Sequence record: SRR31156797_2579 | DNA: 44,008 bases | Reading direction: 5' to 3' (one strand) | In this document: piece by piece, positions 10,696-31,830 of the stretch | How the letters are laid out: each line of letters opens with the position of its first letter | Numbering within the stretch: the first letter of the stretch is position 1 | The notes under the pieces: generated by a model | Told to the model about the DNA's origin: nothing | Seen by the model: the letters and a program-made list of their open reading frames with translations, nothing else | Databases searched by the model: none | Made by a program: the position numbers and the translations under genes

Positions 10696-11115
10696 TCTAA
10701 GTCCCTAAATAACAGGACTTATCCTTTCTTATTTGATTATTATCTTTTCTTCATTCTGTATAGATTATTATTCATTAATAAGTTTTTGGAGATAAAAAAA
10801 AAGTATTCATGTCAATTTTTTGATAATAATTATTTCATTAAGAATTCCATCTTTATTTATATCGTTTATTGACGTATTAAATATTAATTTGCGCTTATTT
10901 AAAAATACAACAGCATTAGTTGGAAAGTGACTAATTTATCAATTAAGATTAAAAAACAAGATAAATATGTATAAACATTAAAAAACACTTGAATAATCTT
11001 AGCTTTAGTCAGATAATAAAAATATAATTATAAAAAATTTCGGATTATACCAATGCCCTTGACGATTAGGCAGGTTTATCCGACTTAGTTAGCCAATTCT
11101 CCAAATATAATTAAT

Positions 11116-11418
11116 GCAAAACGACCTGTCATGAAAATGATGGGTTGTTTTGCGTGATTTTTGTTTCACAAAAATCTATTGGACAAAAGCATTATTCTGC
11201 TTTAGCAAAATGATGCGAAAGTCACGACGCTCTAGAGAGATGCGTCTAGCTGACTCAGGCCGCGATAGTCCAGCAATTTGTTCACCTTGAAAAGGTGAAT
11301 TGATAGCGGTGGAGGTACTCTTAGCAATTTAAGAAAATAAGTTTAACAAATTCATCACGTAGAATTAAATCTATTGGACGATAGCATAATTTACTATAGT
11401 AAAATAATGCGAAAGTCA
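11116..11418 (+). repeat. Composite copy of the modular hairpin-repeat family
   Basis: Consecutive stem-loops. Modules A-B (11156-11224, partial repeat 11367-11418) match the 26.8 kb array; 11217-11309 matches the reverse complement of about 31727-31820. Confidence 0.8.
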
Positions 11419-11532
11419 TTAAGCCCTCAAAAAAATCAATATCAAAAACAATTACACTAACCGCTTAACAAAACAAAGTAACTATTAACATATACGCATA
11501 ATATCAAAAATTTTTTCATGATATCTACCTCT

Positions 11533-11561
11533 TTGAACAATATACATTTACATGGTATAAT
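11533..11561 (+). promoter_or_regulatory. Sigma-A promoter of the surface-protein gene
   Basis: TTGAAC-17 bp-TATAAT with extended TG. Confidence 0.7.
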
Positions 11562-14600: not shown

Positions 14601-14627
14601 TTAGCACTCTCCTGAGAGGAGTGCTAA
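14601..14627. promoter_or_regulatory. CIRCE element (HrcA operator)
   Basis: Exact TTAGCACTC-N9-GAGTGCTAA between the hsp20 promoter and RBS. Confidence 0.96.
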
Positions 14628-15393: not shown

Positions 15394-16833
15394 TTACATA
15401 TTATCCTCACTTTGTTTTGCCTGCTCCCAAAAAACATCCATTTCCTCCAATTTAAGCTCTTTAAATGACTTTTTACTGCCTAATATCTTTTGTTCCATAT
15501 AGCTAAATCGTCTTATAAATTTGGTAGTAGTGTTGTTGAGGGCGAACTCTGATAGGACTCCCAGCATCCTGCACACATTGATAACTGCAAAGAGCAGATC
15601 CCCTACTTCCTTTTGTGCAAGTCTAGTGTTGCCTGCTCTGTATTCGGCAATAGTTTCCTCCAGTTCTTCAGCAACCTTTTGGAATGCTCCGTCAATATTA
15701 TCCCAGTCAAAGCCTACCTTTTTGGCACGCTCCTGTACTTTCTGCGCCCTGACTAATGCATTCATATTCTTTGGATATTTCTGCATTATCTCGCCTTCGG
15801 TCTTTTCCTTTCTGTTCGCCTTTTTAATCTCGTCCCAGTTTTGCAGTACTTCTTCACTGCCTTCAACCTCTACATTGCCAAATACATGAGGGTGACGACG
15901 GATTAGCTTACTAGCGAGATTATATATTACATCGTATATGTCAAAGTCTCCCCTCTCCTCCGCAATGGCTGAGTGAAACATGACCTGTAGCAGTACATCT
16001 CCTAGTTCATCAGACAGCTCGTCCATATCATTGTTATCTATAGCGTCCAGAACTTCAGCACACTCCTCTAATAGACATCGCTTTAGACTCTCGTGTGTCT
16101 GTTCTCTATCCCATGGACAGCCCTCTGGCTCACGAAGCCTTGCAAAGACCATCTTCAAATCATATAAATCATATTTTTCTCCAGGTGTCCTCTTTGGCAC
16201 ATAAACACTGGACATATGGTCAATATCTATATCTCTGTCCAGCATATAAATAGGAATTTCCTCTACATTATTTTTACTATATAGTATTACCATATGTTCA
16301 TCTGTATAGTATTTAGACAAAAGTATCTTAATCTGGGATATAGTATATATATCATCAAGTTCATTAATCATCATAGGCACACGGGGGTTTATCATGCTAT
16401 CATCTATTATGGCAGCAGGAATCGTCATCAATCCGTTTGATATATCCTTTGGCAGGCTGCGGCATAACTTTTCCTCATGATATGAAATACTGGGAACTAT
16501 CTCCACGTTATCGTACATCTGGCATATGATATCTACTGTGCCGTCCTCAGTTACTGCACTTGACGGCACTGCATAGACTACTTCGCTAAGCTTTGCCTTT
16601 GATATTATTCCCTTGGCAATGTTGTTCTCCAGATTATCAAAGTCATCTTCCGTTTCATAGTAACTATCCATTGTGGTATAAAATATATTTTCACTATTAA
16701 GGAATTTAGCACCGCTGCATTGCTTAGTCCTCAGCACTATATTAGTTTTATCCTTTAGCAGTTTATATGCCTTTACGGTCATTAGTTCATTGTCAATAGG
16801 TCCTAAGCCTACTATATATATTTTATTGCTCAT
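15394..16833 (-). CDS. mazG: YabN-type tetrapyrrole-methylase/MazG nucleoside triphosphate pyrophosphohydrolase
   Basis: IYIVGLGP N-terminus; GCPWDREQTH, ELGDVLLQVMFH, KLIRRHPHVFG, VGFDW. Confidence 0.93.
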   Translation of the reverse strand: MSNKIYIVGLGPIDNELMTVKAYKLLKDKTNIVLRTKQCSGAKFLNSENIFYTTMDSYYETEDDFDNLENNIAKGIISKAKLSEVVYAVPSSAVTEDGTVDIICQMYDNVEIVPSISYHEEKLCRSLPKDISNGLMTIPAAIIDDSMINPRVPMMINELDDIYTISQIKILLSKYYTDEHMVILYSKNNVEEIPIYMLDRDIDIDHMSSVYVPKRTPGEKYDLYDLKMVFARLREPEGCPWDREQTHESLKRCLLEECAEVLDAIDNNDMDELSDELGDVLLQVMFHSAIAEERGDFDIYDVIYNLASKLIRRHPHVFGNVEVEGSEEVLQNWDEIKKANRKEKTEGEIMQKYPKNMNALVRAQKVQERAKKVGFDWDNIDGAFQKVAEELEETIAEYRAGNTRLAQKEVGDLLFAVINVCRMLGVLSEFALNNTTTKFIRRFSYMEQKILGSKKSFKELKLEEMDVFWEQAKQSEDNM

Positions 16834-16864
16834 CTTTAGCCTTTCGTTTTGTATATTGTATTAA

Positions 16865-17215
16865 CTATTCTCCAACTATTTCAACTACCAGCTTGTGAGG
16901 CAGACAGACAATTGTATCGCCAATATTCTCTGCCGGTTTTGTGTCGACACAGATTAAATTTGGGCAGTTGGCATACACCACATTTACCTGACCGTCCTTT
17001 ATTACTATTTTATTATGATAATCATGTTCATCGCAGGAATCATATTCATATACTTCATCTGTCTCATCTGTTAATGGATACTTTGCTATCTCTTCGCCGT
17101 CTACAGTAATTACTACGTATTTATCCTGACCAGTATCTGCAAAATTCATATAGACAATTGCTCCCAGAGCAATAATCACTATAATGCTAAAAATAATTAC
17201 TTCATTTTTTTTCAT
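16865..17215 (-). CDS. NusG domain II-containing membrane-anchored protein
   Basis: N-terminal TM; ANCPNLICV...GDTIVCLPHKLVVEI. Confidence 0.88.
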   Translation of the reverse strand: MKKNEVIIFSIIVIIALGAIVYMNFADTGQDKYVVITVDGEEIAKYPLTDETDEVYEYDSCDEHDYHNKIVIKDGQVNVVYANCPNLICVDTKPAENIGDTIVCLPHKLVVEIVGE

Positions 17216-17303
17216 AATATATATTATATACTTTTTACAAGTAAATTTGCAAAGTAAAAAATCCTAATATATAATTAATGAAACTAAAATATTATGAGGT
17301 AGT

Positions 17304-18362
17304 ATGAAAAAGATAATAATTTTAATTATATCATTAGTTGTGGTAGGAGTAATAGCTTTGTCTCTGATAAATGCTCCTATTACAATTTCCAGCAATACTT
17401 TTGCTCTAGATACACTAGTTGAAATAAAGATATATGATAAAAATGCTTTCAATGAAAACAAGCTAAAAAGCCTGACTGATGAGAGTTTTTCACTAATACG
17501 TGATTTGGAGGATACACTTAGCCTGTACAAAGATGGCAGCGATATCTACAATCTGATGATTAATGCTGGAAGCGAACCTATTCAAGTAGCTGATATTACA
17601 TATGAAATAGTAGAGGATTCTTTCTATTTCTCTTATTTAACTAATGGACTTTTTGATATTACTTCAGGACCTTTGATTGATTTATGGGCAATCGATCCAC
17701 CCAATGGCCATATCCCAACAGAAGAGGAGTTATCAGAGGTTCTGCCTCTTATAGATTACAGTAATATCTCCTTAATGGAGAATAATGAAATACTCTTAAA
17801 TAACGATAATATGATTGTTAATCTAGGTGCAATTGCAAAGGGTGCAATAGCAGATGAAGTAAAAAAATACTTATTAGAGCAAAACGTAAAATCAGCCATA
17901 ATAAATCTAGGCGGAAATGTACTGACTATCGGAAACAAAATTGACGGTTCTTATTTTCATGTAGGTATACAAAATCCATTTGATGATAGAAATTATTACA
18001 TTATGAATATTCCAATAAATGATATGGCAGTTGTAACCTCTGGGGATTATGAGAGATACTTTGAGGTTGACGGCATTAGGTATCATCACATACTGGATAC
18101 ATCAACTGGTTATCCTGCGGATAATGAAATCAAGCAGGTGACAATAGTCGCTCCTACATCTATTATGGCAGATGGATTGTCTACATCTGTTCTCTTGATG
18201 GGACTACAAGAGGGAATAGCCATAGTAGAGGGACTGGATGATGTGGAGGCAATATTTATTACCAAGGACAAGGAAATCTACATAACCAAAGGTCTGCAAA
18301 GTGGCTATGAATTATCTGAAGATTTTGATGATAGCTTTACTATTATTGATAGTTTGAATTAG
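17304..18362 (+). CDS. apbE: FAD:protein FMN transferase (ApbE family)
   Basis: FDITSGPL, NLGAIAKG, INLGGN, VVTSGDYERYF, YHHILD, ADGLST. Confidence 0.93.
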   Translation: MKKIIILIISLVVVGVIALSLINAPITISSNTFALDTLVEIKIYDKNAFNENKLKSLTDESFSLIRDLEDTLSLYKDGSDIYNLMINAGSEPIQVADITYEIVEDSFYFSYLTNGLFDITSGPLIDLWAIDPPNGHIPTEEELSEVLPLIDYSNISLMENNEILLNNDNMIVNLGAIAKGAIADEVKKYLLEQNVKSAIINLGGNVLTIGNKIDGSYFHVGIQNPFDDRNYYIMNIPINDMAVVTSGDYERYFEVDGIRYHHILDTSTGYPADNEIKQVTIVAPTSIMADGLSTSVLLMGLQEGIAIVEGLDDVEAIFITKDKEIYITKGLQSGYELSEDFDDSFTIIDSLN

Positions 18363-18412
18363 GGTATTTCACTTATACTTTGCAGTAATTGATGATATAA
18401 CAAAGTATATTT

Positions 18413-18931
18413 ATGAATAATAAATTATTAACAATCATTAAAAGGAATAGTGCAAATATGAAAAAAAGAGAAGTACCGCAAGCTGCAATAGAAAGAAACA
18501 AAGCATGGATAAAAGCTGTCTCTGAATCTTTGGGCAAGCAAAATGACAAGAAACTATCTCGCTGTATTATGAAAGCAGCCGGTAAAGAATGTGCCATTCA
18601 AATGCACGAAATCATACACGGACATTTGGAGAAGAAACCCCAATCTGTAGAAGAAATGGTTAAAGCTATCAACATTCGCAGAAAAGAAGTATTAAAAGCT
18701 GATACTTTTTGGGAGTTAAAAGATAATAAAGCTGCATTTAGACTAAATGAGTGTGGCTGTGATATAGTTCAGGCGGGACTTGCAACACCAAATCCTACAT
18801 TCTGTTTATGTTCCGCAGGTGTTTTTGAAAATCTTTTTGCGCCGTATCATAATGGAAATGTACGTGCTGAAATCGAAAAATCTATTGGTAACGGTGATAA
18901 ATACTGCCAATTTACAGTCTACTTTGAATAA
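18413..18931 (+). CDS. Cys-rich hypothetical protein (DUF6144/V4R-like)
   Basis: GKEC, CGC, FCLCSAG, SIGNGDKYCQF pattern; true start may be 18458. Confidence 0.6.
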   Translation: MNNKLLTIIKRNSANMKKREVPQAAIERNKAWIKAVSESLGKQNDKKLSRCIMKAAGKECAIQMHEIIHGHLEKKPQSVEEMVKAINIRRKEVLKADTFWELKDNKAAFRLNECGCDIVQAGLATPNPTFCLCSAGVFENLFAPYHNGNVRAEIEKSIGNGDKYCQFTVYFE

Positions 18932-18967
18932 TATTAATGTAAATATAATATAGACTTATGATATTAT

Positions 18968-19540
18968 TCATTTACTAAACGATTTTAACTTCCATTCTCT
19001 AGCTAGTATAGAATAAAATAACCTGCTAACGTATTTATTATTCATATAAAAATAATCTCTGAATGTACCCTCATATACAAAGCCGCATTTATCGATTACA
19101 CCTTTTGATGCTATATTACTTTCTTTATGACTAATCTGAACTCGGTGAAAATTGACCTCATCAAAGCAAAACTTAAGTACACAATTTACTGCTTCTGTCA
19201 TATAGCCTTTTCTATGAAAATCACTTCCCAAGCAATATTCTATTTCACAGCATTCATTCTTTGTACTTACGAAAAATAGTGCTATTTGTCCGATGCAAAT
19301 ATCAGATTCTTTCTCTATAATAGCCCACCTGTAATAATCTTTATTACTATAGCTTGAAATATATTTATCAAGCAAAGGCTTTAACTCATCCTCAGTTTTA
19401 TATGTTGGCTCTGAATACATAGATTGTATCTTTTCATCACTAATCCAGTATTTCAGCATATCATTAGTGTCACTATATTGAAATTGACGCAATAGCAGTC
19501 TATCTGTTTGTTTACATATCGTTCCAATATTATTAACCAT
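18968..19540 (-). CDS. RimJ/RimL-type GNAT N-acetyltransferase
   Basis: TDRLLLRQF, EIEYCLG..FHRKGYMTEA, NIASKGVIDKCGFVYEG. Confidence 0.9.
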   Translation of the reverse strand: MVNNIGTICKQTDRLLLRQFQYSDTNDMLKYWISDEKIQSMYSEPTYKTEDELKPLLDKYISSYSNKDYYRWAIIEKESDICIGQIALFFVSTKNECCEIEYCLGSDFHRKGYMTEAVNCVLKFCFDEVNFHRVQISHKESNIASKGVIDKCGFVYEGTFRDYFYMNNKYVSRLFYSILAREWKLKSFSK

Positions 19541-19756
19541 GGATGCCCCCTAAAAAATTATAAAGTTAGCAAATGATAACATGAACCAAATAGAAAGTCA
19601 AATGAAATATTTACAATAAATATAATATAAAACTATATTAAAAATCTAAAACATACACACCCCGTATAATAACTATTAAATTAACATTTCAAGTTTTGTT
19701 TTCATATACTACTTCTAGCATTATTATTTAAATTTTGATAATTTTCGGAGGTAATT

Positions 19757-20005
19757 ATGAACTCTCAGATAACACTTTCTCAACTTTCAATTGGCGAGAA
19801 AGCCAGCATAGTAAAGCTAATATCTTCCGGTGAAAACAAGAGAAGAATGCTGGATCTAGGTCTAGTCAATGATACCATAATTGAAGCCTTGTATGTCAGT
19901 CCTTCAAAGGATCCAAAGGCATACTATTTCAAAGGCTGTGTATTCGCACTGCGTTCAGAGGACGCTAATCAGATAATAGTAAAGCCTCTCTGTTTGGGGG
20001 TCTAA
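19757..20005 (+). CDS. feoA: Ferrous iron transport protein A
   Basis: RRMLDLGLV, SPSKDP, ALRSEDA; upstream of feoB. Confidence 0.92.
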   Translation: MNSQITLSQLSIGEKASIVKLISSGENKRRMLDLGLVNDTIIEALYVSPSKDPKAYYFKGCVFALRSEDANQIIVKPLCLGV

Positions 20006-20007
20006 TT

Positions 20008-22152
20008 ATGAAAAGCAAAGACAATATAAACAGACAAAAGATGCTGGATGATTCCTATTTAACAAAGTATGAGGATGAATATGTAGTTGCTCTTGCAGGC
20101 AATCCCAATGTAGGTAAAAGCACAGTATTTAATTCACTGACAGGATTAAAGCAGCATACAGGCAACTGGCCCGGCAAAACAGTCACAAATGCCAGAGGTC
20201 ATTATAAACACAAGAACAAAGATTACATTTTGATAGATTTACCTGGAACATATTCAATGATGTCATCCTCTGTAGAGGAAGAGGTAGCAAGAGATTTCAT
20301 GTGCTTTGGCAATCCTGATGCGACTATTGTAGTAACAGATGCCACATGCTTAGAGAGAAACCTGAATCTGGTGCTCCAAACAATTGAAATGACCAGAAAC
20401 GTTATTGTATGTGTTAACTTAATAGATGAAGCTTCCAATAAAGGCATTTCAATTGATATTAAGCAGTTATCAAATCTATTGGGAGTACCCGTTGTGGCAA
20501 CTAATGCACGAAAAAAAAGAGGGCTAAAAAATCTGACAGATACAGTCCACAGCGTTGCTACACAAACAATAAAACCAAATCCATATAATATAAAGTATAA
20601 TCCAGTAATAGAAACTGCCATTGAGATAGTACTGCCTCGAGTAAAGTCTCTGATAAATTATGACCTTAACCCACGATTTGCTGCGCTGAAACTATTGGAA
20701 GGTGAAGATACTATTCTCACATCAATAGATGATTATTTGGGAATAAAGATGAGAGACGATGAAACTCTGCAATTATCCCTTAAGCAGGCGAACGAGTACC
20801 TAATCGGCAATGGCTATGATAAAGATATTTTTCTGGAAAAGATAGTATCTCAGCTATATAAAATATCAGAAGAACTCTGCAAAGAGACTGTCAGCTTCCA
20901 AAAAAATGAATACAATACAGTATCAAGAAAGATTGATAAAGTACTGACATCAAAAGTATTTGGCATACCTATAATGATTGCGCTGCTAGGATTGGTCTTT
21001 TGGCTGACTATTACAGGAGCTAACTATCCCTCACAGATGCTGGCAGGATTCTTTGAAAATATACAGTACCATCTGACGGATTTCTTCCACTATATCAATG
21101 CTCCCGACTGGCTCCATGGCATGCTGGTATTGGGAATATATCGTACTCTGGCGTGGGTTGTCTCCGTCATGCTTCCGCCTATGGCAATATTCTTTCCTCT
21201 GTTTACTCTCCTGGAGGATTTAGGGTATCTGCCTCGTGTTGCGTTTAACCTAGATAATTATTTCAAGAAATCCTGTGCTCACGGCAAGCAGGCACTGTGT
21301 ATGTGTATGGGCTTTGGCTGTAATGCAGCTGGGGTTATCGGCTGTCGGATAATTGATTCTCCTAGAGAGAGATTGATTGCCATAATTACTAATAACTTCG
21401 TACCCTGCAATGGCCGCTTTCCAACTCTGATTGCAATATCCACCATCTTTATAGGCGGTATGGTGGCGAGTGCCTATCAGTCATTGGTATCTACAGTGGC
21501 TATGGTTTGCGTTATTATCCTAGGGGTTGTGATGACCCTCTTTATCTCCAAGCTCCTATCCAAGACCATTCTAAAGGGATTGCCTTCCTCATTTCAGCTG
21601 GAGCTTCCTCCATATCGGAAACCTCAGGTAGGCAAGGTAATCGTCCGCTCTATATTTGACAGAACATTATTTGTACTTGGCAGAGCAATAATCGTAGCCG
21701 CACCTGCTGGGCTGATCATCTGGATAATGGCAAATATTACGGTAGGTGATATGTCCATACTTGCCCACTGCGCCGATTTCCTAGACCCATTTGCCAATCT
21801 AATCGGCATGGATGGTATAATACTGATGGCATTTATTCTAGGGCTTCCAGCGAATGAAATAGTAATCCCTATTATCATAATGAGCTATATGGCTACTGGC
21901 TCTATGCTGGAGCTGGAGAGCCTTTCAGAGCTAAAAACTCTGCTGGTAAATAACGGCTGGACTTGGCTGACAGCTATCAATGTAATGCTGTTTTCGCTGA
22001 TGCATTTCCCATGTGCCACAAGCCTGCTGACCATAAAGAAAGAGACCCAGAGCCTGAAATGGACGGCAGTGTCCTTTGCTGTGCCTACTATGACTGGGCT
22101 GGTGTTTTGCTTTGTAGTTACTCAGGTTGTTAGGCTTTTGGGGTTGGTGTAG
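20008..22152 (+). CDS. feoB: Ferrous iron transport protein B
   Basis: GNPNVGKS, GNWPGKTV, DLPG, NLID, GFGCN, PCNGRFP, ELPPYR. Confidence 0.96.
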   Translation: MKSKDNINRQKMLDDSYLTKYEDEYVVALAGNPNVGKSTVFNSLTGLKQHTGNWPGKTVTNARGHYKHKNKDYILIDLPGTYSMMSSSVEEEVARDFMCFGNPDATIVVTDATCLERNLNLVLQTIEMTRNVIVCVNLIDEASNKGISIDIKQLSNLLGVPVVATNARKKRGLKNLTDTVHSVATQTIKPNPYNIKYNPVIETAIEIVLPRVKSLINYDLNPRFAALKLLEGEDTILTSIDDYLGIKMRDDETLQLSLKQANEYLIGNGYDKDIFLEKIVSQLYKISEELCKETVSFQKNEYNTVSRKIDKVLTSKVFGIPIMIALLGLVFWLTITGANYPSQMLAGFFENIQYHLTDFFHYINAPDWLHGMLVLGIYRTLAWVVSVMLPPMAIFFPLFTLLEDLGYLPRVAFNLDNYFKKSCAHGKQALCMCMGFGCNAAGVIGCRIIDSPRERLIAIITNNFVPCNGRFPTLIAISTIFIGGMVASAYQSLVSTVAMVCVIILGVVMTLFISKLLSKTILKGLPSSFQLELPPYRKPQVGKVIVRSIFDRTLFVLGRAIIVAAPAGLIIWIMANITVGDMSILAHCADFLDPFANLIGMDGIILMAFILGLPANEIVIPIIIMSYMATGSMLELESLSELKTLLVNNGWTWLTAINVMLFSLMHFPCATSLLTIKKETQSLKWTAVSFAVPTMTGLVFCFVVTQVVRLLGLV

Positions 22153-22215
22153 GATAACTTGCTCTGCACTCTGCAACCTGTAGAGCAATCTACTAACCCA
22201 GCGAAAGCATAATTA

Positions 22216-22244
22216 GGTGATTCCAGAGATGGGGTCACTTTTTT
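22216..22244 (+). terminator. Intrinsic terminator after feoB
   Basis: GTGATTCCA-GAGA-TGGGGTCAC followed by T6. Confidence 0.7.
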
Positions 22245-22300
22245 CATCATAAAATATTCTCATCTTTTACTGCTCTTAAGAAAACATTCCCACCCCCCCC

Positions 22301-22331
22301 TTGACCCTAACGTTACGTTATAGTTTATAAT
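22301..22331 (+). promoter_or_regulatory. MerR-type promoter/operator
   Basis: TTGACC-19 bp-TATAAT with dyad TAACGT-T-ACGTTA (22308-22320) in the over-long spacer. Confidence 0.92.
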
Positions 22332-22337
22332 AAAGCC

Positions 22338-23075
22338 ATGAAAGAATTAATTACAATAAATCAGTTGGCAAAGTTATCAGGTATCACGGTACGGACCTTG
22401 CACTACTATGATGAGGTAAATCTGCTAAAGCCTGCATCTATCGGCGAAAACGGCTACAGACAATATTCCCAAAAGGACATAATGAGACTGCAGGAAATTA
22501 TGACCCTAAAGGAATTGGGCTTTAGCCTAAAGGATATAAAAACTCTGATAGATACTGATGCCCTAAGCCGACAGGATGCCTTTGCGATGCAGAGAGACAT
22601 TCTGGTCAGAAAGCGTCAGAGGCTTACAGGGATAATTAATTCTTTGAATAAACTAATGGAGGATAATGAAATGAGTTTTAATCAATTCGATATGACAGGC
22701 ATTGAGGATGCAAAGAATAAGTATAAAGACGAGGCCGAAAAGCGCTGGGGGCATACTGATGCCTACAAAGAATCTGCCCGCAAGACAAACAAGTACACCA
22801 AGGCTGACTGGGCGGCAATAGAAAGTGAAGCAACAGCAATCTACGATAAGTTTATTGCCAATCTAAAGTCAGGTATACCTACTGAGGATAATGCGGATAT
22901 TGTCAGGCAGTGGCAGGAGCATATCACAAAGAACTACTACAAATGTACCGGTGAAATACTATCTGGCTTAGGTCAGATGTATGTGGCTGATGAACGATTT
23001 ACAAAGAATATTGATAAGAGGTGTCAGGGACTGGCTGAGTATATGGCAGAGAGTATTAAGAAATACTGCGAATAA
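22338..23075 (+). CDS. MerR family regulator with TipAS antibiotic-recognition domain (TipA/Mta-like)
   Basis: GITVRTLHYYDEVNLLKP...GYRQY HTH; EAEKRWG.T.AYKES, GLGQMYVADERF. Confidence 0.92.
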   Translation: MKELITINQLAKLSGITVRTLHYYDEVNLLKPASIGENGYRQYSQKDIMRLQEIMTLKELGFSLKDIKTLIDTDALSRQDAFAMQRDILVRKRQRLTGIINSLNKLMEDNEMSFNQFDMTGIEDAKNKYKDEAEKRWGHTDAYKESARKTNKYTKADWAAIESEATAIYDKFIANLKSGIPTEDNADIVRQWQEHITKNYYKCTGEILSGLGQMYVADERFTKNIDKRCQGLAEYMAESIKKYCE

Positions 23076-23087
23076 TCAAACTGTATT

Positions 23088-23110
23088 AGGGAGCTTTGCT
23101 CCCTTTTTTT
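23088..23110 (+). terminator. Intrinsic terminator
   Basis: AGGGAGC-TTT-GCTCCCT followed by a T tract. Confidence 0.75.
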
Positions 23111-23290
23111 CTATTGATAACAAGTTACCTAAGAACACTGTCCACCATATACAAAACACATATTAAATGATATAATAACTCTGCTTGGCATAACAAAGGA
23201 AAAATAATAATATTATTAGAAATATCTATAATAATCTAAAACAAAACTTATAATAATATATATGATTGCAATAGAGAGGTCAATTCCTAT

Positions 23291-24889
23291 ATGACTCAAA
23301 AAAAGAGAAGCTTCGTCCAAGGAGCAACCATATTAGCTGTCACATCTATGCTGGTAAAGGTCATAGGCATCCTGTATAAACTTCCACTATTTAATATGAT
23401 AGGTTCCGAGGGTGCAGGTCTGTACCTTATGGCATATCCATTTTATACATATCTATTGATGTTATCAACAGCGGGACTGCCACCTACTATATCAAAGTTA
23501 GTAGCTCAAAAGATATCCAACGGTGACAGAATGGGTGCGAAGAAGGTATTCACCACTGCTCTTACACTTATGGCTATTCTAGGAATTGTCTTTTCCATCA
23601 CATTAATTGCAATGAGCTCCTATATATCACAGCAATTTATAGGGGATCCACTATCAAGACTTCCTATTATATGCCTGGCTCCAGCTATTGCACTGGTTTC
23701 AATTATGTCTGCTGTCAGAGGCTATTTCCAAGGTATGCAGAATATGGTACCAACAGCTGTATCACAATTGGCTGAACAAATAGGTAAAGTTATATTCGGA
23801 TTGTATTTAGCACGTCTTATGATGCCGCGTGGTATAGAATACGCTGCCGCAGGTGCGACACTTGGAATAGTGATATCTGAGTTTATTGGATTAATAGTAA
23901 TAATTATCTTCTATATTGCAAAAGCACCAAAAATTAAAATAAAGAAAAGTGCAACAGAACCAACCAGTGCTATTCTGCGTCAGATTGGACAGCTGGCATT
24001 CCCAATATTAATGGGTGCTTCCATTATGCCGTTAGTAAACCTTATAGATACAGGAATAGTTGTAAATCAATTGACAAAAATTGGATATGAGCTGGAGACT
24101 GCCCGTTCCCTCTTTGGTATTGCTGCTGGGTTCGCTAACACACTACTAAATGTTCCCGGAGCTATTTCTCTGGCATTTTGCGTATCAATTGTGCCTGCAG
24201 TATCTGCCTCCATCGCACGAGGTGACAAGGCAAACCTAGAACGAAATATATCTATGGGGTACAGACTATCTATGCTAGTTGGCGTACCGTCAGGTGTAGG
24301 ATTTTTCGTGTTGTCAGAACCAATAATGAACCTGCTCTACGGAAACAAGCTGTCTCCAGAGGGTTTAGTAATCAGCGGTAATGCACTGCAGCTAATCGCA
24401 TTAGGCGTAATATTCCTGTCCATACTGCAGACTTTCAATGGTGTTCTTCAAGGCATGGGCAAAGTATACATTCCGGTAATCGCTCTAGCATCAGGTGCAG
24501 TCACCAAGATAATCCTGTGCTATGTACTGGTAGGCACTCCTGAAATCAATATCTACGGAACACCTATCTCTACATTTGCATGTTACTTCGTAGCATCTAT
24601 AATCGATATAATAATGATCAAGAAGCTGACAGGAATAAAGCTGGAAAAGCGAGCTTTCAGCATTCGTTTAATATTTGCCAGTCTCTTAATGGGCGGAGCA
24701 GCATGGGCAGCCCATTCATTGCTATCTGGTGTAATTGGCTCAAAGATTGCAACAGTTGTTGCTGTGTTAGTAGGCGTTGCAGTATTTTTACTGGATTTAA
24801 TATTGTTCAAAGTCTTCCAAAAGGATGAGCTAAAATCCTTACCTGGCGGTCACAGAATGGTAAAGCTGTATAATGCAATATGGAGCTAA
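23291..24889 (+). CDS. YabM/SpoVB-like MOP-family polysaccharide/lipid II flippase
   Basis: SFVQGATIL, STAGLP..ISKLV, RGYFQG..NMVPTAVSQ..EQ; many TM helices. Confidence 0.9.
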   Translation: MTQKKRSFVQGATILAVTSMLVKVIGILYKLPLFNMIGSEGAGLYLMAYPFYTYLLMLSTAGLPPTISKLVAQKISNGDRMGAKKVFTTALTLMAILGIVFSITLIAMSSYISQQFIGDPLSRLPIICLAPAIALVSIMSAVRGYFQGMQNMVPTAVSQLAEQIGKVIFGLYLARLMMPRGIEYAAAGATLGIVISEFIGLIVIIIFYIAKAPKIKIKKSATEPTSAILRQIGQLAFPILMGASIMPLVNLIDTGIVVNQLTKIGYELETARSLFGIAAGFANTLLNVPGAISLAFCVSIVPAVSASIARGDKANLERNISMGYRLSMLVGVPSGVGFFVLSEPIMNLLYGNKLSPEGLVISGNALQLIALGVIFLSILQTFNGVLQGMGKVYIPVIALASGAVTKIILCYVLVGTPEINIYGTPISTFACYFVASIIDIIMIKKLTGIKLEKRAFSIRLIFASLLMGGAAWAAHSLLSGVIGSKIATVVAVLVGVAVFLLDLILFKVFQKDELKSLPGGHRMVKLYNAIWS

Positions 24890-26574: not shown

Positions 26575-26745
26575 AAAAAAGAGCGTCTGAAAAAGCACAA
26601 GAACCTAGTCCCAGCACAAGAAAGTGAGGATAAATGTTTTGCTAGCTTTTGTCAGACGCACAAATAACAACCATTAATATAATGGTCAAAGTTACTATTA
26701 ACATCTACAAAAACTACTTACGCATCCCGCTTCTTGCAACCTCCT
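26575..26745 (-). promoter_or_regulatory. Attenuator-type 5' leader of the ABC-F gene
   Basis: Stem arms 26645-26659 and 26583-26596 followed by a T6 tract just before the RBS; AGGAGG (26740-26745) and micro-uORF ATG-CGT-AAG-TAG (26714-26725). Confidence 0.7.
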
Positions 26746-26798: not shown

Positions 26799-27000
26799 GC
26801 GTGATTTCCACCCTGTGGAAATCTACTGGCGAAAGACGTATTGCGAAGCAATGCGTTAAAAGCATGATTGTTGCTTTGCAACAATCTATAGGCGATAGCA
26901 ATGTTTTGCTTGTCAAAATGTTGCGAAAGCGTGATTTCCACATAGTGAAAATCTATAGACGAAAGCATTATTTTGCTTAGCAAAATAGTGTGAAAGGGAT
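26799..27000 (+). repeat. Tandem array of three 63-68 bp double-hairpin units
   Basis: Units begin at 26803, 26866 and 26933: GATT..AATC hairpin, TAY-N3-CGAWA linker, second hairpin, RAAAG linker. Confidence 0.88.
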
Positions 27001-30409: not shown

Positions 30410-30482
30410 TAAACTACTGAGTGGTTTGATTTATCAGCAATTGCATCCCTTCGGGATGCTTCGTGTTTCACGTGAAACAAAA
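30410..30482 (-). repeat. Hairpin-repeat copy fused to parS (copy 1)
   Basis: GCATCCC-TTC-GGGATGCT-T-CG-parS-AAA, near-identical to 31791-31830. Confidence 0.85.
30464..30479. promoter_or_regulatory. parS site
   Basis: Perfect TGTTTCACGTGAAACA. Confidence 0.95.
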
Positions 30483-31584: not shown

Positions 31585-31726
31585 ATATATTTAAGTACAT
31601 GTACTTCTTTTCTACTGTTTTTATTTCTTCACAATAATAAAGATATACTACCACTCCCTAAGAATACATCGAAAGGTGGATACTCTGTTCCATTGTAGAG
31701 TTCTCCAATAGTTACACTATATTTAT

Positions 31727-31830
31727 TCCGCTAACAGTTCACCTTTCAGGTGAACAAACCGCTAGGCTACCGCGTGGTTTATTGGCAGTCGCATCCCTGC
31801 GGGATGCTCCGTGTTTCACGTGAAACAAAA
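31727..31830 (-). repeat. Hairpin-repeat copy fused to parS (copy 2)
   Basis: GTTCACC/GGTGAAC and GCATCCC/GGGATGC hairpins followed by parS; reverse complement aligns with 11217-11309. Confidence 0.85.
31812..31827. promoter_or_regulatory. parS site
   Basis: Perfect TGTTTCACGTGAAACA. Confidence 0.95.

Follow-up and report, generated by a model that had tools for sequence, protein, structure and literature searches.

An apparent patchwork of two folded repeat modules in a clostridial intergenic spacer, one of them from a lineage-restricted family usually found behind tRNA genes

The hairpins found around 11 kb in a 44,008-nt stretch of DNA (record SRR31156797_2579; hereafter the window, at its full length) give the impression of a patchwork built from two repeat modules, not of a single RNA gene. 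The first module, A-B, represents a lineage-restricted, strand-polarised family of two-hairpin units of about 70 nt, which in related genomes usually follow directly after a tRNA 3' end, on the same strand as the tRNA, also within rRNA spacers. Sequence comparison points to a second module, C-D-E, that appears in this genome alone. With slightly better than even confidence, we read the 11-kb locus as a composite copy, in which a repeat unit of the tRNA-trailer type and a module private to this genome have come together in a single spacer, next to a terminator-like hairpin. The initial annotation had described a single element of about 380 nt, linking all modules of a repeat family, and had explained it either as an independent structured non-coding RNA or as a modular non-autonomous mobile element.

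The window is a chromosome piece from a low-GC, Clostridia-type bacterium; it lies near parAB and carries SpoIIP, SigI/RsgI and four parS sites. The nearest genomes found, G066 and G548, show 93% identity in ParA, 74-76% in LysS and 47-50% in PrmA, and they are included in a family set of 23 Clostridia-type genomes reached via DUF1614 matches titled 'Bacillota bacterium'. The spacer of the 11-kb element is ORF-free, as had been reported, and measures 865 nt; it is flanked by a divergent DUF1614 gene and an 800-aa ORF. Contigs from DNA run X1 match this region at roughly 4x depth, and the run may represent the source sample. At the cut-offs used, DUF1614, SpoIIP and the ABC-F gene gave no match in five near relatives, which thus yielded no orthologue of the 11-kb spacer, and the DNA upstream of the DUF1614 relatives (58-60% identity) is unrelated to that of the window. 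The genes mazG and murJ, adjacent and co-directional in G066 and G548, lie 6.4 kb apart and opposed here (15394-24889), therefore the window is rearranged. Elsewhere in the window, a 9-9-9 inverted repeat just upstream of the Hsp20 gene (14601-14627) is a perfect match to CIRCE, the HrcA operator. A short open frame (<90 aa) at about 19750-20007, directly before feoB, is by its position probably feoA, and a MerR-type promoter layout (a long spacer with a dyad) precedes a MerR/TipAS gene at 22300-22337. A replication origin at 11 kb was considered and rejected, with DnaA-box matches showing no excess in the window and none falling in the spacer.

Table 1. Coordinates of hairpins, repeat units and promoter candidates in the window
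Feature	Position	Strand	Remarks
Weak sigma70-like promoter candidate	10989-11017	+	9/12
H0, imperfect hairpin	11041-11082	+	z=-1.80; family membership not supported
H1, long hairpin with GAAA loop, followed by a T-rich tract	11114-11155 (stem-loop 11116-11153)	+	17 bp, three G-T pairs
Module A, 11-bp hairpin with bulged T and 3-nt loop	11152-11179	+	6/11 pairs change on both sides in five copies
Module B, hairpin with conserved 4x4 purine-rich internal loop	11181-11223	+	AAAA/GAAA here; GAHA/GARA in the family
Hairpin C	11226-11246	+	Alignment and fold
Module D-E: hairpin E (GAA triloop, 11281-11299) on top of a long stem with a TTTG bulge	11261-11309	+	Apparently private to this genome
Second A-B unit, with truncated A	11357-11418 (partial A-B 11367-11418)	+	R2 40.3 bits, E=7e-7
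Promoter candidate of the downstream 800-aa ORF	11533-11561	+	10/12 plus TG
A-B array, three units in tandem (period 63-67 nt)	26799-26998	+	Between divergent genes
Partial copy, C-type hairpin and parS	30427-30482	-	88% identical to 31775-31830 (56 nt)
Second C-D-E module	31726-31807	-	Antisense to flanking prmA and mtaB-like genes; abuts parS at 31812-31827

All the hairpins and promoter-like hexamers named in the initial annotation are in place (Table 1), and H1 has the stem, G-T pairs and loop attributed to it. In total the window holds five A-B units, none near a tRNA. The first unit, at 11152-11223, comprises two hairpins in about 70 nt; the second shares 85% identity with it over 53 nt, and the other three form the array at 26.8 kb. 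The significance of local alignments was judged against 1000 dinucleotide shuffles. The proposed match between A-B and the array was borne out, with a local score of 66 against a shuffle maximum of 38.5, and A-B aligned to the second unit with a score of 71 (shuffle maximum again 38.5). No A-B follows the window's one tRNA, a tRNA-Arg, or its counterparts in G066 and G548; zero A-B units were found in 80 kb around parAB in each of these two genomes. A 22-nt AT-rich stretch outside the modules is common to both A-B-bearing spacers (11474-11495 and 26687-26708; 20/22 identical, E=0.001 among spacers), and is possibly an operator or a chance likeness.

In a plain MAFFT alignment of five A-B copies, 95.8% of cells are paired and 10 of 25 pairs are compensatory. 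A model built only from the five non-tRNA copies (R1) found matches in 7 of the 23 family genomes at E<=0.5, the best of them behind tRNA genes. The refined model R2 (E<=0.05) gave at least 73 matches in 8 of the 23, a floor because only 150 candidates were scored per genome; the individual counts, each also a minimum, are 30 in G552, 14 in G551, 9 in G119, 5 in each of G548 and G550, 4 in each of G066 and G549, and 2 in G556. The remaining 15 genomes gave no R2 match among their 150 scored candidates. Over 69 distinct rows, which are related to one another and were fitted to the model, changes on both sides are seen at each of the 25 pairs, and pairing extends to 93.8% of cells, against 35-47% in slid controls. 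On its 5' side the internal loop of B reads GACA in 44 rows, GAAA in 19 and GATA in 4 (67 of 69 together); on its 3' side GAAA occurs 40 times and GAGA 15 times. The stem sequences of A-B turn over, and the pairing and the 4x4 GA-rich internal loop are retained. The alignment contains 69 G-T cells versus 22 A-C cells, so one strand is the folded strand. GNA triloops are a trait of DNA hairpins and favour DNA folding; the terminal loops of B include about 20 such triloops and 17 GNRA tetraloops among the 69 rows, and this mixture does not settle between folding as RNA and folding as DNA.

Beyond this family, a strict A-B pattern run over 241 million metagenome records returned two matches, a genuine intergenic A-B (locus L060) and one in a coding region. 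The A-B pattern matched 0 of 151 genomes of the order, in a pattern mode run without a positive control. R1 and R2 each matched 0 of 151 genomes of the class with 33 candidates scored per genome, and a B-core pattern that recovers only 8 of 84 known units, also without a positive control, matched 0 of 401. These blank samples suggest that the A-B family is narrow in range. BLAST of the 11-kb element and L060 against plasmids and phages gave no match, and viral scans returned nothing real, the matches checked being chance hits without the A-B fold or lying inside coding sequence. At L060 (1461-1596), one A-B unit sits within a different frame whose ends are inverted, and frame and unit together fold at z=-4.38 on the plus strand and -1.27 on the minus strand. 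For the idea that this A-B is inserted into a widespread clostridial repeat, no empty version was found. No description of the A-B family was found in the openly accessible main texts searched (the supplements of PMC2267715 may hold an unnamed family), and A-B is apparently a folded repeat family not previously described.

The location of A-B in the relatives was assessed on 79 units in 52 clusters, that is, on 84 matches after removal of three rows from the window, of L060 and of an antisense shadow in L086. A same-strand tRNA lies within 250 nt upstream in 33 of the 52 clusters (57 of the 79 units), and an antisense one in none; roughly estimated, a few percent of intergenic positions would show such linkage by chance. 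The 33 include three that represent second copies of rRNA operons, and collapsing them leaves 30 of 49. A-B occurs inside the 16S-23S spacers of G119, G551 and G552, and once after 5S, in G551. At L086 and L119, neighbouring tRNAs are on opposite strands and each is followed by its own A-B in its own sense; the polarity of A-B therefore tracks the tRNA rather than the replication strand. The tRNA CCA is usually followed first by a terminator-like hairpin, then by a short hairpin and finally by A and B; with the terminator-like hairpin between tRNA and A-B at most tRNA loci, transcription of A-B would require read-through. Copy number varies at one and the same site: an orthologous tRNA-Val site carries 2 copies in G550, 9 in G551 and 1 in G552, and one orthologous gene end carries 1 in G119 and 4 in G552. 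Rfam matched only tRNA, rRNA and 6S over 40 of the relatives' loci.

A copy of the tRNA 3' end (>=14 nt) was found in 4 of the 33 tRNA-linked clusters, each time of 20-21 nt. Such re-copying is seen in trailer units at L094/L095 (G552:C7 304.8-305.7 kb), L086, L135 and L139; three of these units have a 10-13-nt segment complementary to the T-arm region of the tRNA, and a tandem period of 347 nt is seen among them behind a tRNA-Arg. The 19 clusters without a tRNA include several antisense to flanking ORFs, as is L060. Some non-tRNA copies lie within duplicated flanks (L150/L151 in G119 and L096/L141 in G552, about 86-96% by tblastx), suggesting that they ride on larger duplicated or mobile segments.

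The match between C-E and the reverse complement of the spacer at 31.7 kb, the other half of the modular claim, was confirmed with a local score of 59 against a shuffle maximum of 30. Hairpin E forms the end of a longer stem that spans 11270-11307 and carries a TTTG bulge, which the 31.7-kb copy keeps through a compensatory change relative to the 11-kb copy; the foot of the D-E stem reads GTAG at 31.7 kb and ATAG at 11 kb, and the two C hairpins align chiefly in the 3' arm. A C-D-E model found, within the window, only these two copies and an incomplete one at 30.4 kb, and matched 0 of the 23 family genomes, with the limited sensitivity of a model made from two sequences. The prmA-mtaB spacer is 364 nt here versus about 146 nt in G066 and 64 nt in G548. 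The relatives keep parS in it and lack C-D-E, in a comparison where divergence (PrmA 47-50%) hides the junctions. Similarly, the tRNA-Arg-prmA spacer is 300 nt here versus about 80 nt in G066 and G548, whose 77-83-nt orthologous spacer lacks the partial copy. Since the relatives' spacers are shorter and without C-D-E, and none of the 23 genomes gave a match, C-D-E would most simply be a gain in this lineage, with loss in the sister genus as the alternative. The four parS palindromes (30464, 31812, 32802 and 35178) are perfect, and one lies inside the mtaB-like ORF. Two of the four have the same C-type hairpin beside them; in the relatives parS stands directly at the prmA stop codon without such a hairpin.

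Compared with the other two loci, H0 plus H1 scored no better than 344 and 992 of 1000 shuffles, therefore the element is not made solely of family modules. H0 had no match elsewhere in the window or in the family loci, and as a fold it is not significant, 12 of 200 shuffles being equally good. A degenerate tRNA in H0 was rejected: Rfam gave none, and by eye there is no T-loop and no acceptor pairing. H1 is the sole terminator-like site of the spacer and occupies the position where relatives carry the short hairpin before A; homology with that hairpin was not supported, a profile of 20 relatives' hairpins giving no match to H1. The upstream promoter has the reported hexamers (TTGAAT-17-GATAAT), but it scores low and its kind is present at chance density, with seven promoter-like sites in the region against a shuffle mean of 7.0. 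A candidate for a separate promoter of the downstream gene is present, as proposed.

These findings bear on the reading of the 11-kb stretch as an independent structured RNA of about 380 nt, driven by the 10989 promoter and built of domesticated repeat modules. The spacer is long and ORF-free, the 396-nt stretch folds better on the plus strand (z=-6.07) than on the minus strand (z=-4.24), the G-T pairs and GAAA loops face the plus strand, H0 is preceded at a distance of about 25 nt by a promoter-like site, and in E. coli small RNAs do arise from three tRNA-linked repeats (PMC8144298). We nevertheless consider such an RNA improbable. The predicted fold is a chain of local hairpins with low-confidence long-range pairs, the promoter is of chance quality, and the terminator-like H1 would stand near the 5' end of the transcript. 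Rfam gave nothing at its cut-off (best psRNA14, 34.6 bits versus 60), and the layout from H0 to the second A-B was not found as a whole in relatives, only parts of it recurring elsewhere; the genus of the nearest relatives gave short AT-rich matches only, the best at E=0.007. Thus the RNA half of the earlier proposal gained no positive support. The other half, a modular non-autonomous mobile element, stood as far as modularity is concerned: A-B is dispersed and tandemly expanded here and in relatives, and two of them lack C-E in the orthologous spacer. Mobility was not borne out. At the ends tried, the true ends being uncertain, A-B has no terminal inverted repeat of >=8 nt, and in place of a convincing target duplication there are only A-rich 7-nt direct repeats. 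Y1 transposase does not track the family, occurring in 5 of 8 carrier genomes and 6 of 15 non-carriers and not being found in G551, G119 and G548.

The same results weigh on the idea that A-B and C-D-E are single-stranded DNA hairpin elements of the REP/BIME kind, moved by an HUH transposase or by an integrase favouring tRNA 3' ends and terminators, with the 11-kb locus as a mosaic. GNA triloops occur not only in B but also in E and in the parS-linked C hairpins, and the bulged T of A, the GTAG foot of the 31.7-kb stem, the presence of C-D-E here and not in relatives, the few re-copied tRNA 3' ends and the single A-B inside the different frame of L060 all fit this picture. Nevertheless, it seems rather unlikely to us: besides the Y1 distribution and the missing end signatures, six Y1 loci of carriers had no A-B nearby at E<=0.02, the tRNA-strand polarity is strict, and A-B sites common to different family genomes point to inheritance more than to frequent jumping. 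A bolder reading makes A-B self-propagating, homing to the 3' ends of stable RNA genes via a single-stranded intermediate, with the invariant 4x4 GA loop being recognised by a host-encoded or mobile enzyme; A-B would then be a SINE-like tRNA-trailer element and the 11-kb locus a promoter-driven escapee with a captured second module, which we find decidedly doubtful. Least credible to us, and highly unlikely, is a host-selected RNA signal whose GA loop binds a protein or directs the processing of tRNA and rRNA precursors, the orphan arrays at 11 and 26.8 kb titrating the factor. The loop is indeed near-invariant while all stems covary, several genomes retain units at orthologous tRNA sites, and units occur in rRNA operons. 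Against this, 15 of the 23 family genomes gave no match among the candidates scored, the tRNA-Arg of the window and of its two nearest relatives does without A-B, and copy number is free to vary from 1 to 9.

The composite reading of the 11-kb locus draws on a proposed origin of A-B as a tRNA trailer. The seed model contained no tRNA-linked copy, and yet its top matches in relatives were tRNA-linked. A-B would be a structured trailer of stable-RNA transcripts, with its fold kept at the RNA level; slippage or unequal recombination may have raised its local copy number, with occasional copying into other spacers, the copies of this genome sitting away from tRNAs. At 11 kb, one copy would have landed beside C-D-E and the terminator-like hairpin, where its effect may be local at most, such as termination or stabilisation of an RNA end. 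A pure trailer view has to contend with the tRNA-free units of the window and of 19 of the relatives' 52 clusters, and maintenance at the RNA level with the terminator-like hairpin before most tRNA-linked copies and with the GNA triloops. The 380-nt element itself is less remarkable than first proposed. The A-B family, by contrast, offers dozens of diverged copies with a fully covarying fold and one invariant loop, as well as natural contrasts between tRNA-linked and orphan copies, between one and nine copies at the same site, and between carriers and non-carriers in one family; the questions of RNA versus DNA and of function versus parasite are therefore testable.

Among known systems, a CRISPR array was rejected, as the units are wholly repeat and vary with covariation, and no cas family was among the Pfam matches listed for 36 ORFs. 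REP/BIME elements with their RAYT transposases (PMC3733652) share with A-B the short imperfect palindromes in mosaics and strand-specific mismatches that are kept; A-B has no conserved GTAG or CGTC tag, with GTAG in one D-E copy and ATAG in the other, and is not associated with a Y1 transposase by distribution or position. The tRNA-linked repeats of E. coli (TLR, rtT, rrA/B/F) have been known since 1978, their function and mode of spread being almost unassigned (PMC8144298). Like these, A-B is non-coding and comes in tandem, with one to several units at a locus, behind tRNA genes and inside rRNA operons; the location agrees for most clusters in relatives and for none of the window copies. The TLR hallmark in that account, an 18-19-bp copy of the upstream RNA 3' end, is matched in only the four clusters described above and in zero window copies, and A-B also differs in its 19 non-tRNA sites and its covarying two-hairpin fold with the conserved 4x4 GA loop. 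The pneumococcal BOX element, boxA-(boxB)n-boxC (PMC3049150), resembles A-B in being modular, intergenic and lineage-restricted, and in having modules that fold independently and vary in tandem copy number. According to the same source, BOX has terminal inverted repeats and target duplications, of which none were found for A-B, and its enrichment is between convergent genes, that of A-B behind tRNAs. Because A-B departs from a defining trait of TLR and from one of BOX, we file it under neither class, and describe it as a BOX/TLR-like modular repeat.
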